A DNA stretch of 10,077 nucleotides, from positions 1 through 10,077 of IMG/VR virus record IMGVR_UViG_2541047687_000013; one strand, given 5' to 3'. A model generated the notes under the pieces. It was not told the origin of the DNA and made no database searches. It saw only the letters and a list, made by a program, of their open reading frames with translations. Shown here piece by piece: positions 1-8,148 of this stretch. Source of the stretch: a virus. Its lineage: Duplodnaviria; Heunggongvirae; Uroviricota; Caudoviricetes. A program made the position numbers and the translations under genes. Position 1 is the first letter of the stretch. Each line of letters opens with the position of its first letter.

Positions 1-15
1 AAACCAACGTTTATC
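1..15. other. Probable crossover half-site (hix/gix/cix/pix-like) for the adjacent serine invertase, truncated by the window edge
   Basis: Positions 1-15 read AAACC-AA-CGTTT-ATC, resembling the central AAACC-nn-GGTTT core of the 26-bp sites used by Hin/Gin/Cin/Pin invertases. It sits about 60 bp upstream of the invertase start, as in Mu gin, P1 cin and e14 pin. The left half lies outside the window, so it cannot be confirmed. Confidence 0.3.
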
Positions 16-73
16 TCTCAAATCCTCCCCACATTATCTCAGTACTTTAACCACTCAAAAGGGAGTATTTTTA

Positions 74-646
74 ATGCTGATTGGCTACATACGTGTGTCA
101 ACAAATGACCAAAACACAGATTTGCAACGCAATGCATTAATGTGCGCAGGATGTGAACAGATTTTTGAGGACAAAATGAGCGGAACCAAGTCGGAACGAC
201 CAGGCCTGAAACGCGCTTTAAAGTGCCTTAAAAGAGGGGATACATTGGTGGTCTGGAAGCTGGATCGGTTGGGTAGAAGAATGAAACACCTCATTGCTCT
301 CACAGAAGAGCTACGCGCAAAAGGTGTCAATTTTCGCAGTCTGACGGATTCAATCGATACCAGCACTCCGATGGGAAGGTTCTTTTTTCATATGATGGGT
401 GCACTGGCAGAAATGGAGCGTGAACTGATAGTTGAGCGCACGCTGGCAGGACTGGCTGCTGCGCGAGCACAAGGAAGAGTTGGAGGACGTCGCCCGAAAC
501 TGACGAAGGAGCAGCATGAGCAGATCGCAAGATTGCTCCAGAAAGGGTATGACAGAAAGCGGCTGGCAATTATCTATGATATTGGACTGTCAACGATCTA
601 CCGCTATCACCCTGTTGGGACTGTCATAACGCAACCTGAAATGTAA
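74..646 (+). CDS. pin: Serine recombinase, DNA invertase of the Pin/Gin/Hin/Cin family
   Basis: 190-aa ORF with the N-terminal resolvase/invertase catalytic motif GYIRVSTNDQ (active-site Ser), the conserved LVVWKLDRLGR and FRSLTDSIDT blocks, and a C-terminal helix-turn-helix (GRRPKLT). Closely resembles e14 PinE as recalled. GGGAG Shine-Dalgarno at 61-65. Confidence 0.9.
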   Translation: MLIGYIRVSTNDQNTDLQRNALMCAGCEQIFEDKMSGTKSERPGLKRALKCLKRGDTLVVWKLDRLGRRMKHLIALTEELRAKGVNFRSLTDSIDTSTPMGRFFFHMMGALAEMERELIVERTLAGLAAARAQGRVGGRRPKLTKEQHEQIARLLQKGYDRKRLAIIYDIGLSTIYRYHPVGTVITQPEM

Positions 647-699
647 TTCTTTTTCAAATAATGAAACGCCGCGTGGATGCCATTTATCGCACAAGATAG

Positions 700-2346
700 A
701 GTGCATTTATCGCGCGGCGCATCACCGAAGTCACCGCAGACAGCGGGGAATATCAGGTGCTGGCGCGCTGGGACACGCCGAAGGTGGTGAAGGGGGTGAG
801 CTTCCTGCTCCGTCTGACCGTAACAGCGGACGACGGCAGTGAGCGGCTGGTCAGCACGGCCCGGACGACGGAAACCACATACCGCTTCAGGCAACTGGCG
901 CTGGGGAACTACAGGCTGACAGTCCGGGCGGTAAATGCGTGGGGGCAGCAGGGCGATCCGGCGTCGGTATCGTTCCGGATTGCCGCACCGGCAGCACCGT
1001 CGAGGATTGAGCTGACGCCGGGCTATTTTCAGATAACCGCCACGCCGCATCTTGCCGTTTATGACCCGACGGTACAGTTTGAGTTCTGGTTCTCGGAAAA
1101 GCGGATTACCGATATCAGGAAGGTTGAAACCACAGCGCGCTATCTTGGTACGGCGCTGTACTGGATAGCCGCCAGTATCAATATCAAACCGGGCCATGAT
1201 TATTATTTTTACGTTCGCAGTGTGAACACCGTTGGCAAATCGGCATTCGTGGAGGCTGTCGGTCAGCCGAGTGATGATGCATCAGGCTATCTGGATTTTT
1301 TCAAAGGCGAGATAGGGAAAACCCATCTGGCTCAGGAGCTGTGGACGCAGATTGATAACGGTCAGCTTGCGCCTGACCTGACTGAAATCAGGACGTCCAT
1401 AACGGATGTCAGCAATGAAATAACACAGACCGTCAATAAGAAACTGGAAGACCAGAGTGCAGCGATCCAGCAGATACAGAAGGTTCAGGTTGATACAAAT
1501 AATAACCTGAACAGCATGTGGGCAGTGAAGCTGCAGCAGATGCAGGACGGACGCCTTTATATTGCGGGTATCGGTGCCGGTATTGAGAACACCCCTGACG
1601 GCATGCAGAGTCAGGTGCTGCTGGCAGCAGACAGGATTGCGATGATTAATCCTGCGAATGGCAACACAAAGCCGATGTTTGTTGGTCAGGGCGATCAGAT
1701 ATTCATGAATGAAGTGTTCCTGAAACGCCTGACGGCCCCCACCATTACCAGCGGCGGTAATCCTCCGGCATTTTCCCTGACATCAGACGGGAGACTGACG
1801 GCGAAAAATGCGGATATCAGTGGCAGTGTGAATGCGAACTCAGGAACGCTCAACAATGTCACGATTAACCAGAACTGTACGATTAAGGGCATGCTGGAGG
1901 CGACCCAGGTCAGAGGAGATTTCGTTAAAGCTGTATCAAAAGCCTTCCCGAAAAAAGTCGGTACGTGGGGTAACACGGAAACACCAAACGGTACGGTTAC
2001 AGTCACCATCAGCGATGATCATAACTTTGACCGCCAGATTATTATTCCGCCCATTATTTTTAACGGTATAGCGTATGACGATCCGGGGAGCGGAAATAAC
2101 CCAGGAGGCACGCGATACACGGGTTATGGTTTTGAAGTTCGCAAAAACGGCGTATTAATCGCATCCAGAGAAACTAAAGGGGCCATTCCCGGTAGTTACA
2201 GTGCAGTTATTGATATGCCGAGTGGCAGGGGAAGCGTCACTCTGGAGTTTAAGATTTTCCAGAAAGGCAATCAGGGGGCAGGCAATATCACCGACTGTAC
2301 GGTGATTGTGACCAAAAAAGCCGCTTCCGGCATCAGTATTCGTTGA
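700..2346 (+). pseudogene. J: 5'-truncated host specificity protein J (central tail fibre), C-terminal ~548 codons only
   Basis: The frame opens after an in-frame TAG at 697-699 and runs to TGA at 2344-2346. The translation ([56 protein letters not shown]...) matches the C-terminal half of lambda J as recalled. Only 53 bp separate it from the invertase stop, so the N-terminal ~590 codons are absent. No Shine-Dalgarno precedes the first in-frame GTG at 757. Confidence 0.8.
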
Positions 2347-2368
2347 AATATTTATAACCCCAATAAAG

Positions 2369-2394
2369 GGCGTCAGGAATGACGCCTTTTTTAT
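2369..2394 (+). terminator. Rho-independent terminator downstream of J remnant
   Basis: Perfect 7-bp stem GGCGTCA (2369-2375), loop GGAA, TGACGCC (2380-2386), followed by TTTTTTATT. Confidence 0.7.
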
Positions 2395-2416
2395 TGCAGA
2401 AAAGCGAGAGGTAATT

Positions 2417-3016
2417 ATGCGTAAAGTTTGTGCAGCAATTTTGTCCGCAGCCATTTGTCTGGCCGTATCCGGTGCGCCTGCATGGGCGTCTGAACATCAG
2501 TCCACGCTGAGCGCGGGGTATCTTCATGCCTCGACGAACGTCCCCGGCAGTGATGATCTGAACGGGATTAACGTGAAATACCGTTATGAGTTTACGGACA
2601 CACTGGGGCTGGTGACGTCATTCAGCTATGCAGGAGACAAGAATCGCCAGCTGACCCGTTACAGCGATACCCGCTGGCATGAAGATTCCGTTCGTAACCG
2701 CTGGTTCAGCGTAATGGCGGGGCCGTCTGTGCGCGTGAATGAATGGTTCAGCGCGTATGCGATGGCGGGTGTAGCTTACAGCCGTGTGTCGACTTTCTCC
2801 GGGGATTATCTTCGCGTAACTGACAACAAGGGGAAAAAGCACGATGTGCTGACCGGAAGTGATGACGGTCGCCACAGCAACACGTCTCTGGCGTGGGGGG
2901 CTGGCGTGCAGTTTAACCCGACCGAATCCGTGGCCATTGATATTGCTTATGAAGGCTCCGGCAGTGGTGACTGGCGCACTGACGGTTTCATCGTGGGTGT
3001 CGGTTATAAATTCTGA
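2417..3016 (+). CDS. lom: Lom outer membrane protein (Ail/Lom/PagC family eight-stranded beta-barrel)
   Basis: 199-aa ORF with an N-terminal signal peptide (MRKVCAAILSAAICLAVSGAPAWA). Blocks INVKYRYE, YAMAGVAYSR and the C-terminal DIAYEGSGSGDWRTDGFIVGVGYKF match lambda Lom as recalled. GAGAGG Shine-Dalgarno at 2405-2410. Position between J and stf is as in lambda. Confidence 0.9.
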   Translation: MRKVCAAILSAAICLAVSGAPAWASEHQSTLSAGYLHASTNVPGSDDLNGINVKYRYEFTDTLGLVTSFSYAGDKNRQLTRYSDTRWHEDSVRNRWFSVMAGPSVRVNEWFSAYAMAGVAYSRVSTFSGDYLRVTDNKGKKHDVLTGSDDGRHSNTSLAWGAGVQFNPTESVAIDIAYEGSGSGDWRTDGFIVGVGYKF

Positions 3017-3042
3017 TTAGCCAGGTAACACAGTGTTATGAC

Positions 3043-3070
3043 AGCCCGCCGGTTCAGGCGGGCTTTTTTG
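3043..3070 (+). terminator. Rho-independent terminator downstream of lom
   Basis: Stem AGCCCGCC (3043-3050), loop GGTTCA, GGCGGGCT (3057-3064), followed by a T6 run and GTGGGG. Confidence 0.75.
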
Positions 3071-3080
3071 TGGGGTGAAT

Positions 3081-6000
3081 ATGGCAGTAAAGATTTCAGG
3101 TGTACTGAAAGACGGCACAGGAAAACCGGTACAGAACTGCACAATCCAGCTGAAAGCAAAACGTAACAGCACCACGGTGGTGGTGAACACGCTGGCCTCA
3201 GAAAATCCGGATGAAGCCGGGCGTTACAGCATGGACGTTGAGTACGGGCAGTACAGCGTTATTCTGTTGGTGGAGGGATTCCCGCCGTCACATGCCGGGA
3301 CCATCACCGTGTATGAAGATTCCCGACCCGGTACGCTGAATGATTTTCTCGGTGCCATGACGGAGGATGATGCCCGTCCTGAGGCACTGCGCCGTTTTGA
3401 ACTGATGGTGGAAGAGGTGGCGCGTAACGCGTCCGCGGTGGCACAGAACACGGCAGCCGTGAAGAAGTCAGCCAGCGATGCCAGCACATCAGCCCGTGAG
3501 GCGGCAACCCATGCGACTGATGCTGCAGGCTCAGCACGCGCAGCCAGCACGTCAGCCGGACAGGCCGCGTCGTCGGCTCAGTCAGCATCTTCCAGCGCAG
3601 GAACGGCATCAACAAAGGCCAGTGAAGCATCGAAAAGTGCTGCTGCTGCAGAGTCCTCAAAAAGCGCGGCAGCTACCAGTGCCGCTGCGGCGAAAACGTC
3701 AGAAACGAATGCGGCAGCGTCACAACAATCAGCAGCCACTTCTGCATCCGCCGCGACCACGAAGGCGTCAGAAGCAGCCACCTCAGCCCGGGATGCGGCG
3801 GCCTCAAAAGAGGCAGCGAAATCATCAGAAACGAACGCATCATCAAGCGCCAGTAGTGCCGCTTCCTCGGCAACGGCGGCAGCAAATTCTGCGAAGGCGG
3901 CCAAAACGTCTGAGACAAACGCCAGGTCTTCTGAAACGGCAGCGGGACAGAGCGCCTCGGCTGCGGCAGGCTCAAAAACAGCGGCTGCGTCGTCTGCCAG
4001 TGCCGCGTCAACAAGTGCCGGGCAGGCCTCAGCCAGTGCCACCGCCGCCGGAAAATCGGCAGAAAGTGCCGCATCGTCTGCTTCAACAGCCACAACGAAG
4101 GCTGGCGAAGCCACTGAACAGGCCAGCGCAGCAGCGAGGTCTGCTTCCGCAGCGAAGACATCCGAGACGAACGCGAAAGCGTCGGAAACCAGCGCAGAAT
4201 CCTCAAAAACGGCTGCCGCATCGTCCGCCAGTTCGGCGGCGTCATCGGCATCATCGGCGTCTGCTTCAAAAGATGAGGCGACCAGACAAGCGTCCGCAGC
4301 GAAGGGCAGCGCCACGACAGCATCCACGAAGGCGACAGAGGCAGCTGGCAGTGCGACGGCGGCAGCACAGAGCAAAAGTACGGCGGAATCCGCGGCAACG
4401 CGCGCCGAGACAGCGGCAAAACGGGCAGAGGATATTGCATCCGCCGTGGCGCTTGAGGATGCAAGTACGACGAAAAAGGGGATAGTACAGCTCAGCAGTG
4501 CGACCAACAGTACGTCTGAAACGCTGGCGGCAACGCCAAAGGCAGTAAAATCAGCCTATGACAATGCAGAGAAACGTCTGCAGAAAGACCAGAACGGCGC
4601 TGATATACCCGATAAGGGACGCTTCCTGAACAACATTAACGCGGTCAGTAAAACAGACTTTGCTGATAAGCGTGGTATGCGTTATGTGCGGGTTAACGCT
4701 CCTGCAGGTGCAATATCTGGAAAATATTACCCTGTTGTTGTTATGCGTTCTGCTGGCTCAGTAAGCGAACTGGCATCAAGGGTCATTATCACCACGGCAA
4801 CGCGAACCGCAGGCGATCCGATGAATAACTGCGAGTTTAACGGATTTGTTATGCCTGGTGGCTGGACTGACAGGGGGCGTTATGCTTATGGAATGTTCTG
4901 GCAATATCAAAACAATGAACGAGCCATCCACTCAATAATGATGAGTAATAAGGGCGATGATTTGCGCTCTGTGTTCTATGTTGATGGCGCTGCTTTCCCT
5001 GTTTTTGCGTTTATCGAAGATGGCCTGTCAATATCCGCACCTGGTGCTGATCTCGTTGTTAATGATACGACCTATAAGTTTGGGGCAACAAATCCGGCGA
5101 CTGAATGTATCGCGGCGGACGTTATCCTTGATTTTAAGAGTGGGCGTGGTTTTTATGAGTCTCATTCGTTAATCGTTAACGATAACTTGTCGTGCAAAAA
5201 ACTTTTTGCCACAGACGAAATTGTAGCGCGTGGTGGTAATCAGATTCGAATGATAGGTGGGGAGTATGGGGCATTATGGCGTAATGATGGCGCTAAAACT
5301 TACCTGCTGCTTACCAATCAAGGTGATGTTTATGGTGGCTGGAATACATTAAGACCGTTTGCTATTGATAACGCAACCGGCGAACTGGTTATTGGAACCA
5401 AACTGTCCGCAAGTCTGAACGGTAATGCATTAACAGCAACAAAGCTGCAAACGCCAAGACGGGTTTCTGGTGTTGAGTTTGATGGTTCCAAAGATATTAC
5501 TTTAACCGCCGCGCATGTGGCTGCTTTTGCCAGAAGGGCAACGGATACATATGCCGATGCGGATGGTGGCGTTCCCTGGAATGCCGAATCAGGCGCTTAC
5601 AATGTCACCCGCTCTGGCGACAGCTATATTCTGGTTAACTTCTATACCGGAGTCGGAAGTTGCCGGACCCTGCAGATGAAGGCGCATTACAGAAATGGTG
5701 GTCTGTTCTACCGTTCTTCAAGAGATGGCTATGGTTTTGAGGAAGACTGGGCAGAAGTTTATACCTCGAAAAATCTTCCACCAGAAAGCTACCCAGTCGG
5801 CGCACCAATCCCGTGGCCATCAGATACCGTTCCGTCTGGTTATGCCCTGATGCAGGGGCAGACTTTTGACAAATCTGCCTACCCGAAACTTGCTGCCGCT
5901 TATCCGTCAGGCGTGATCCCTGATTTGCGTGGCTGGACGATTAAGGGCAAGCCCGCCAGTGGTCGTGCCGTATTGTCTCAGGAACAGGATGGCATTAAAT

Positions 6001-6479
6001 CGCATACCCACAGCGCCAGCGCATCCAGTACGGATTTGGGGACGAAAACCACATCGTCGTTTGATTACGGCACTAAATCCACGAATAACACTGGTGCGCA
6101 TACCCATAGTTTAAGTGGCAGCACGAATGCAGCTGGTAATCACAGCCATAGAGATGGCCGTCGATTTAACCCCAGTGTTTTTAAAGATACTTATCAATAT
6201 GGTTATACAAGCTCAGGTCAAAATACCTGGGGTGTACAAGGCTCAGTAGGTATGTCTACGGGGTGGTTAGCGAATACCAGTACAGATGGTAATCATAGCC
6301 ATTCACTGTCCGGCACAGCAGCATCTGCAGGTGCACACGCGCATACTGTCGGTATTGGTGCTCATACGCACTCCGTTGCGATTGGTTCACATGGACACAC
6401 CATCACCGTTAACGCTGCTGGTAACGCGGAAAACACCGTCAAAAACATCGCATTTAACTATATTGTGAGGCTTGCATAA
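3081..6479 (+). CDS. stf: Side tail fibre protein Stf, mosaic
   Basis: The N-terminus [80 protein letters not shown] and the C-terminus ...[31 protein letters not shown] match lambda/Rac Stf as recalled. The ORF track begins at GTG 3075, but ATG 3081 with a GGGGTG Shine-Dalgarno fits the lambda start. Long Ala/Ser-rich shaft and His-x-His-rich tip. Confidence 0.9.
3460..4490 (+). repeat. GC-rich imperfect tandem repeat region encoding the Ala/Ser/Thr-rich fibre shaft of Stf
   Basis: Recurring nucleotide units such as AAAACGTCAGAAACGAATGC, TCATCAGAAACGAACGCATC, AAAACGTCTGAGACAAACGCC and AAGACATCCGAGACGAACGCG, encoding repeated AAKTSETNA / SASAAS-type peptide units. The low complexity spawns long spurious ORFs in every other frame. 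Confidence 0.8.
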
Positions 6480-7063
6480 TGGCATTCAGAATGAGTGAAC
6501 AAGCACGGACCATAAAAATTTATAATCTGCTGGCCGGAACTAATGAATTTATTGGTGAAGGTGATGCATATATTCCGCCTCATACAGGTCTGCCAGCAAA
6601 CAGTACCGATATTGCACCACCAGATATTCCTGCTGGCTTCGTGGTTGTTTTCAACAGTGATGAGGCATCGTGGCATCTCGTTGAAGACCATCGGGGTAAA
6701 ACGGTTTATGACGTAGCGTCAGGGGACGAGTTATTTATTTCTGAACTCGGTCCGTTACCGGAAAATGTTACCTGGTTATCGCCGGAAGGGGAGTTTCAGA
6801 AGTGGAACGGCACAGCCTGGGTGAAAGATGCAGAAGCAGAAAAACTGTTCCGGATCCGAGAGGCGGAAGAAATAAAAAACAGCCTGATGCAGGTAGCCAG
6901 TGAGCATATTGCGCCACTTCAGGATGCTGTAGATCTGGAAATCGCAACGGAGGAAGAAACCTCATTGCTGGAAGCCTGGAAAAAGTATCGGGTGTTGCTG
7001 AACCGTGTTGATACATCAACTGCACCTGATATTGAGTGGCCTACGAACCCTGTCAGGGAGTAA
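6479..7063 (+). CDS. tfa: Tail fibre assembly protein Tfa
   Basis: 194-aa ORF; [54 protein letters not shown]... and the C-terminal ...[21 protein letters not shown] match lambda Tfa as recalled. The ATG overlaps the stf stop (TAATG at 6477-6481), suggesting translational coupling. Confidence 0.9.
6899..7018 (+). repeat. Direct repeat copy A (tfa 3' end), partner at 7948-8067
   Basis: Manual alignment with 7948-8067 shows about 13 mismatches over 120 bp, with the first ~60 bp nearly identical. Confidence 0.8.
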
Positions 7064-7117: not shown

Positions 7118-7786
7118 CTATTTTTTCCCTGAAGCGGAAAACATTACTACAGTACCTTGAACCTTGGTTTTAACATTCTCGAAATGCTCTGAGAGTATAT
7201 GTGTTAAGCCTTCTTCGGAATCTTTTGTGTTTGAAAAGATGCCTTTCTGATTGTAAATGCGCATCAGTTTTTGACCGAAGCTATTGTGCACAACTCCATC
7301 GCCAAGAATTGTGGCTCCGTATAGAGTTCCATCGTCAGTTAAGGCCTGCGCCGCATTGCGTATTACACAGCTTTTTGTAGATATATTTCCAGGCAGGCAG
7401 TGAAGAAGGTAAAACATGGAAATGGAATCAAATTGACCATGTAACGCCGCGGGATAAGGTTCAAAAACATCATGGCTAATTTTATGTTTAATTTTTGATT
7501 CCCCAGCCCTTGTAGATGCCGCGTTCAGGCTAGCTTCGTTCAAATCCATTAAAGATATCAGACTACTCTCAGGTACGTGAGTAAGGTAAAACCCAGTTCC
7601 AACACCAATATCCAGATGGTTGTTACCTAAATGTTCCAGAAAGTGTGGAAGAAGGTGTTCCTTTGTAGGACATCCCCATGCAAGCCGATTTGATACTCCC
7701 AAAACCCACCAGTCATAAAGCTTTAGGGTAAGTGGTGTGTAAATTTTAGCCCCATCATCTGTGTTTTTTTTCATTAATTTCACCAT
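7118..7786 (-). CDS. ybcY: Class I SAM-dependent methyltransferase (Rossmann fold), substrate unknown; ybcY-like by position
   Basis: 222-aa ORF with motif I HLDIGVGTGFY (hh-D/E-h-G-x-G-x-G), an acidic post-I residue (LMDLN) and an FDSISMFYLLHCLP block typical of small-molecule/protein methyltransferases. No DPPY/NPPY or PC motifs, so probably not a DNA methyltransferase. The second ATG (7772-7774) has a GGTGA Shine-Dalgarno and may be the true start. Gene symbol is from recalled synteny with K-12 DLP12 (tfaD-ybcY-tfaX), not from sequence identity. Confidence 0.75.
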   Translation of the reverse strand: MVKLMKKNTDDGAKIYTPLTLKLYDWWVLGVSNRLAWGCPTKEHLLPHFLEHLGNNHLDIGVGTGFYLTHVPESSLISLMDLNEASLNAASTRAGESKIKHKISHDVFEPYPAALHGQFDSISMFYLLHCLPGNISTKSCVIRNAAQALTDDGTLYGATILGDGVVHNSFGQKLMRIYNQKGIFSNTKDSEEGLTHILSEHFENVKTKVQGTVVMFSASGKK

Positions 7787-7815
7787 GTTATAGTTTTATT
7801 TGTGAATTAAATCAA
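7787..7815 (-). promoter_or_regulatory. Candidate sigma70 promoter for the methyltransferase gene
   Basis: On the minus strand, TTGATT (complement of 7810-7815), a 17-nt spacer, then TATAAC (complement of 7787-7792), immediately upstream of the ORF. Consensus-like spacing; not verified. Confidence 0.3.
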
Positions 7816-7842
7816 TTATGGCGATGAATTACAAGGGGTTAA

Positions 7843-8148
7843 ATGCTGCCGCAGCATAGCGATATTGAAATAGCCTGGTATGCTTCGATACAACAGGAGC
7901 CGAATGGCTGGAAGACCGTCACCACACAGTTCTACATCCAGGAATTCAGTGAGTATATTGCGCCACTGCAGGATGCTGTAGATCTGGAAATCGCAACGGA
8001 GGAAGAAAGATCGTTGCTGGAGGCATGGAATAAATATCGGGTATTGTTGAATCGAGTTGATACATCAGTAGCTCTGGGTATGAAGCTGTTTGTAACTCAT
8101 GTTACAGTAACAGTCATTACTATCTCGAAGGTGCAAAATGTATATTGA
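7843..8148 (+). pseudogene. tfaX: Tail fibre assembly protein remnant (tfaX-like), reading through into unrelated sequence
   Basis: The ORF contains [38 protein letters not shown], almost identical to the Tfa C-terminus at 6899-7018. The Tfa-like N-terminal body is absent and the native C-terminal tail is replaced by read-through. Nucleotide repeat copy B is 7948-8067. Confidence 0.7.

Follow-up and report, generated by a model that had tools for sequence, protein, structure and literature searches.

The central block of a lambdoid side tail fibre gene as a probable StfR-type distal-shaft cassette

Genes of the window and layout of the side tail fibre

The window (the whole stretch of 10,077 nucleotides that was analysed, IMG/VR record IMGVR_UViG_2541047687_000013) was annotated from its list of open reading frames together with Pfam searches. 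A pin-like serine recombinase gene (74-646) lies upstream of a 5'-truncated lambda-type J gene, of which the last 529 codons, including the Pfam J C-terminus, are present (757-2346). This is followed by lom (2417-3016; Pfam Ail/Lom), the side tail fibre gene stf (3075..6479, + strand; 1134 aa from the GTG at 3075) and the tail fibre assembly chaperone gene tfa (6479..7063, + strand; Pfam Caudo_TAP, E 1.6e-44; GC3 0.428). The same J - lom - stf - tfa order is found in lambda, Chlobot and E. coli SW071618, and from base 725 on the window matches, at 100% identity, a lambdoid prophage of SW071618 that is located beside ompT/cusS, the DLP12 position. PGAP annotation of this 100% identical locus starts stf at an alternative ATG (3081), giving 1132 aa. 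Beyond tfa, an intact class I SAM methyltransferase gene (7118-7786, - strand) and a tfa fragment that repeats the tfa C-terminus (7843-8148) were found, and this pair (7118-8148) resembles ybcY and tfaX of K-12 DLP12. A gene for a 494-aa alpha/beta hydrolase (8332-9816, - strand), whose product has a TAP-like C-terminal domain and an N-terminus resembling a signal peptide, sits in AT-rich sequence (GC about 0.36-0.46) that separates the end of the prophage from ompT; in K-12 this position is taken by appY.

At the left end of the window (1-748), the sequence matches pin contexts of other genomes up to 736-748, and from 725 on it matches the DLP12-site prophage. The resulting 24-bp overlap junction (725-748) was present in none of 5426 complete E. 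coli genomes and may be the scar of a deletion or recombination event or a join made in assembly; if the junction is real, this prophage is without a full J. A Pin/Gin/Cin invertible segment was also looked for in the window, with no inverted repeat of at least 24 nt and no gix-like site detected.

The N-terminus of Stf (aa 3-136) belongs to the Pfam family phage_tail_N (PF08400; E 6e-71), which forms the collar on the tail tip, and matches the structure of lambda StfN (PDB 9e7m; E 2e-51). An Ala/Ser-rich proximal rod follows (aa 137-485; 3483..4529, + strand), lambda-like by blastn and 306 nt (102 codons) longer than that of lambda. The additional rod sequence, at window 3990-4296, is also present in K-12 StfR, and no DNA direct repeat of at least 30 nt that would explain the expansion was found in the shaft. 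[quoted passage not shown] Both the collar (Pfam Collar, E 4.5e-12) and the HxH-repeat needle are present and lie outside the block of sequence that separates rod and tip, and the head contains a hypervariable cassette at about 6147-6290 (Stf aa ~1025-1072).

Boundaries, distribution and base composition of the central block

The sequence-only reading had placed a foreign module at 4549-5798, inserted between a lambda-like shaft and a lambda-like tip. For comparison, the 774-aa Ur-lambda Stf was rebuilt from lambda orf-401 and orf-314. Four stretches of stf (nt 7-915, 1222-1475, 2725-3003 and 3256-3405) aligned to lambda by blastn at 79-88% identity, and nothing in lambda aligned to stf nt 1476-2724 (window 4550-5798). 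Alignment at base level showed that lambda similarity ends exactly after the motif ATPKAVK (4530-4550), at the AAA/AAG codon of K492, and resumes exactly at GAPIPWPSD, both as previously proposed. The position and the sharp edges of the module were thus borne out, with the exception of its start, which was off by one base and gave a frame with 15 stops; the in-frame block covers window 4551-5798, corresponding to Stf aa 493-908 and 416 codons. The two motifs are separated in lambda by 147 codons (aa 386-532) that show no relation to the block (BLASTP, E=6). The block therefore stands in place of an unrelated lambda segment and is a cassette replacement, not the insertion originally described. 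BLASTP with low-complexity filtering off also returned a collinear match of Stf 3-511 to Ur-lambda 1-509, which is spurious and runs through the Ala/Ser rod; the boundaries were for this reason taken from DNA blastn and the junction alignments.

Ur-lambda Stf consists of a proximal coiled coil (aa 102-393), a hinge (aa 394-422), a distal domain (aa 423-525) and then a receptor-binding domain (PMC12617516). Since ATPKAVK occupies aa 379-385 in lambda, the exchanged segment corresponds to the hinge and distal shaft. Outside this segment and the longer rod, the two fibres share the N-terminal collar domain, the Ala/Ser rod, the ATPKAVK repeat, the gp37-like tip and Tfa (79-88% nucleotide identity); the Ur-lambda fibre binds OmpC. 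Functional engineered lambda STF chimeras have been built with fusion points at R393 and S528 (PMC11338833), at distances of 8 and 5 residues from the joints found in nature at ATPKAVK and GAPIPWPSD, respectively. This proximity makes the StfR-type cassette a natural alternative scaffold of different length for DNA-delivery side fibres.

The block had been described as foreign relative to both lambda and Rac. Absence from lambda was confirmed, but the stfR gene of the Rac prophage in K-12 W3110 holds the block at 99.1% nucleotide identity and is collinear with the stf of the window (97.5% identity over nt 7-3045). This corrects the earlier reading of the Rac reference, as Rac StfR already carries the block. 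K-12 Rac StfR (b1372; WP_000279097.1, 1120 aa) has the same N-domain, shaft, block, collar and Tfa partner as the fibre described here. It differs in its chromosomal site (Rac compared to the DLP12/ompT position here) and in an unrelated tip head cassette (stf nt 3046-3219), which accounts for the length of 1134 aa here compared to 1120 aa in K-12.

About a quarter of complete E. coli genomes (1307 of 5426) contain the block at ≥80% coverage. At the same coverage, the lambda central segment was detected in 584 of the 5426 genomes, with only 96 records at ≥99% identity, and the Stf N-domain in 4800. The block, which is native to Rac StfR, occurs in more than twice as many of these E. coli genomes as the lambda central segment. 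Across hundreds of complete genomes, K-12 included, the whole stf gene keeps its collinearity at 97.5-100% identity. Among isolated phages, the block protein is 99-99.8% identical in Chlobot, 2H10, mEp332, PhiR34_1, Kati and ev099 and 71% identical in Turner and PhiR30_1. More diverged versions (54-65% identity) occur in the virulent Queuovirinae siphophages 9g (65%), JenK1 and HdK1, whose fibres keep the same order of the three main parts of the block (A, B and C, described below) over 98% of its length; the annotation of the 9g fibre reads 'similar to lambdoid Rac prophage'. The same block, again joined at ATPKAVK, is found in P0019, a P2-like H protein that has a tail-collar N-terminus.

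Base composition was examined along the region, as the block had been called visibly AT-richer. GC drops from 0.617 in the Ala/Ser shaft to 0.470 in the block, which agrees with that description at the left boundary, and there is no step at the right boundary. The left step is mostly a matter of amino-acid composition, the shaft being 37% Ala and 25% Ser, and GC2 falls from 0.79 in the shaft to 0.462 in the block. GC3 was 0.600 in J, lom and the Stf N-domain, 0.524 in the shaft, 0.416 in the block and 0.436 in the tip and tfa; the block did not differ from tip and tfa (chi2 P = 0.61) and differed strongly from the proximal genes (P about 1e-9). This pattern indicates that the compositionally distinct tract is the whole distal half-fibre with its chaperone, and that the block is no island between lambda-like pieces.

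Domain make-up and mosaicism of the block

The left joint of the block falls within a 42-residue Phage_fiber_2 repeat (PF03406; aa 464-504; 4464..4586, + strand; E 3e-22, 78.3 bits against a gathering threshold of 22), an alpha/beta fibrous repeat known from T4 gp34 and gp12 (PMC5537660). The end of this repeat and a hinge linker make up the first part of the block (A0, aa 493-531; 4551..4667, + strand), which is common to Mu S/S' and P2-type H proteins. Over this region, Stf 443-523 corresponds to residues 91-172 of Mu S (gp49/gp51; PDB 5yvq, 8ju3), with the Phage_fiber_2 repeat and hinge linker in common.

Part A (aa 532-712; 4668..5210, + strand) is a beta-rich globular knob of 160-180 aa without a Pfam or NCBIfam model or a solved homologue. 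It is widespread, with 134 cluster representatives among 1.84 billion proteins, located within proteins of up to 2,682 aa. An AF2 monomer model built on a 45-sequence alignment was confident (pLDDT 90.1, pTM 0.86). Foldseek comparison of the knob with the PDB gave nothing below E 0.02 (TM ≤ 0.31), and comparison with BFVD gave 16 matches at E ≤ 0.001, all named ones being phage fibre or tail proteins in which the match falls on an internal domain of 130-200 residues. Five motifs (GKYYPV, PMNNCxFxG, GGWSDR, ERAIHS and FYVExRAFP) are conserved over 45 diverse fibres. The paper on Gifsy-1 Stf makes no mention of central domains. As a widespread and unmodelled fibre domain, the knob would merit a Pfam entry and a solved structure.

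Part B (about aa 696-780; 5160..5414, + strand) is a T4 gp34-type triple beta-helix with a P4-like beta-prism, identified by the gp34 C-terminal trimerization family (Gp34_trimer, PF21446; E 3e-27, 95.7-99.3 bits against a gathering threshold of 27). Stf 708-779 aligns with gp34 1036-1107 in PDB 4uxe/5nxf/9x3r (phmmer E 2e-11 to 2e-10), a gp34 segment that the published domain map assigns to the end of the triple beta-helix and the P4 beta-prism (PMC5537660). Proteins of Aeromonas and Stenotrophomonas phages that are labelled 'small distal tail fiber subunit', one record giving gp36, match parts A and B together at 29-35% identity. T4 gp36 adjoins the knee protein gp35 (PMC5537660). T4 fibres resemble the present fibre in part B (gp34) and in the tip (gp37, 2xgf), but here these elements are combined in one polypeptide on a siphovirus-type N-terminal collar with no separate gp35/gp36 joint, and identity is low outside the tip.

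A linker motif (aa 781-810; 5415..5504, + strand) separates part B from part C (aa 811-908; 5505..5798, + strand). Part C is a Mu S/S'-like domain, with Stf 815-909 matching residues 322-415 of PDB 8ju3 (domain E 1.9e-20), and it overlaps the Pfam family gp37_C (PF12604), to which block fragments show marginal matches (E 2e-5 to 2e-6, 25-28.5 bits against a threshold of 22.5). Mu S thus shares the repeat with its hinge linker and part C, and one P2-like H protein (P0019) represents the P2 gpH family with an identical block. Mu S and P2 gpH differ from the fibre described here in their baseplate-attachment N-terminus, distal tip and chaperone, and Mu S is without parts A and B.

Windowed identity profiles of related alleles (about 25 examples) showed switches near aa 517, 700-720, 795 and 905. 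The linker at aa 781-810 acts as an internal recombination joint: two alleles (P0071, P0077) have 100% identical parts A and B followed by an unrelated part C (falling to about 25% at the linker), and two others (P0083, P0087) show the reverse, with parts A and B at 55-65% and part C and the tip at 100%, again switching at the linker (there from about 60%). A further allele (P0116) is without part B. The block is therefore a mosaic of fibre-shaft parts in its own right.

Several database proteins that contain the block have unusual contexts. Five of them (P0012, P0040, P0047, P0102, P0113) have unrelated N-termini fused to it, or their names or Pfam domains are those of unrelated proteins (terminase, ClpP, glycosyltransferase-like), and two more (P0033, P0038) hold the block yet are named 'short-chain fatty acid transporter'. 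These odd fusions and names are probably gene-calling, rearrangement or annotation artefacts.

Proposed role of the block and alternative explanations

The reading that best accounts for these data, at a probability of roughly 0.82, is that the block is simply the usual distal-shaft cassette, of StfR type, in a lambdoid side tail fibre. The fibre would begin with the lambda-type collar domain and the Ala/Ser coiled-coil rod, and pass at ATPKAVK into a hinge starting in the PF03406 repeat. By analogy with T4 and Mu, the hinge would lead into a trimeric distal half-fibre comprising knob A, the gp34-like helix and prism of part B and the Mu-S-like part C, and trimeric assembly of these parts is expected as in their T4 and Mu homologues. 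The gp37-like collar-needle-head tip, presumably folded with the help of Tfa, would end the fibre and touch the receptor. The job of the block would then be structural, in joining hinge to tip and determining how long and how stiff the distal half becomes; this half is predicted to be longer than that of lambda. Trimers on virions and faster adsorption have been shown for the Ur-lambda fibre only (PMC12617516).

The lambda and StfR central segments are alternative cassettes, which under the same reading would be swapped by recombination at short conserved motifs common to many unrelated fibres, and such motif-bounded exchange would also act within the block. Recombination between lambda and Rac across stf/tfa has been demonstrated by experiment (PMC3945230). 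The earlier suggestion of a horizontally acquired domain holds in the sense of an exchanged cassette with sharp joints, and fails where it made the block an insertion and foreign to Rac, as the block is the native StfR allele. This is tail-fibre mosaicism of a known kind, bounded by motifs, in a block already known from StfR; it documents a textbook example and adds little that is new.

The block had further been proposed to be a receptor-binding or glycan-degrading module that would change host range. With regard to receptor binding, blocks that are 99-100% identical occur together with five or more unrelated head cassettes, located between the HxH motifs of the tip (those of the window, K-12/P0113, P0022, P0077 and P0096), and the head cassette of the window is unrelated to those of K-12 StfR, lambda and three other block-sharing alleles. 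On this evidence the receptor contact that varies lies outside the block, and the head cassette of the gp37-like tip is, from its sequence variation, likely to be the determinant of receptor contact. A narrower version, in which the knob (aa 532-712) is a lectin-like accessory adhesin on the shaft for LPS, O-antigen or another surface glycan, so that the cassette brings in a further recognition step and in this way influences host range, is improbable. The knob folds as an autonomous beta-rich domain in a confident monomer model, is kept in the fibres of many unrelated phages, has invariant polar residues (in PMNNC, GGWSDR and ERAIHS), and its alleles assort independently of the tip, those at 55-65% identity being paired with an identical part C and tip. 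However, divergence among the A alleles is even (50-75% per 20-aa window) with no hypervariable loops, unlike that of the head cassette, and the knob has no significant match to lectin or carbohydrate-binding families. dN/dS could not be used for the A-domain alleles, as synonymous sites are saturated at about 60% amino-acid identity. It is correspondingly improbable that the knob represents a hitherto unrecognised glycan-binding domain common to the fibres of lambdoid, P2-like, P1, T5-like, rV5-like, Queuovirinae and T4-like Aeromonas phages; if it did, swapping the shaft cassette would tune host range independently of the tip.

A depolymerase or glycanase module is far less plausible still. 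Pfam, PHROGs and PDB sequence and fold searches returned only fibre-shaft domains and NCBIfam yielded no match, with no enzyme family and no PDB sequence match to an enzyme, and the structural matches of the knob in BFVD were to fibre and tail proteins. No pectate-lyase-like beta-helix, sialidase, GH or PL catalytic domain was recognised in the block, and its 416 aa are taken up entirely by four small domains of the shaft, so that a beta-helix catalytic domain of 300 or more aa would not fit. Catalysis by the block is, from its domain content, unlikely. Least probable of all is that this prophage alone acquired the block recently from a foreign source, or that the block is a chimera produced in assembly. 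The fall in GC at the left edge and the one unmatched junction of the window (725-748) would fit such an origin, but the drop is largely one of GC2, with GC3 continuous into the tip and tfa, and the junction lies 3.8 kb upstream of the block. Recent acquisition is refuted by the distribution of the gene, which is collinear and nearly unchanged across the many E. coli genomes in which it was found.
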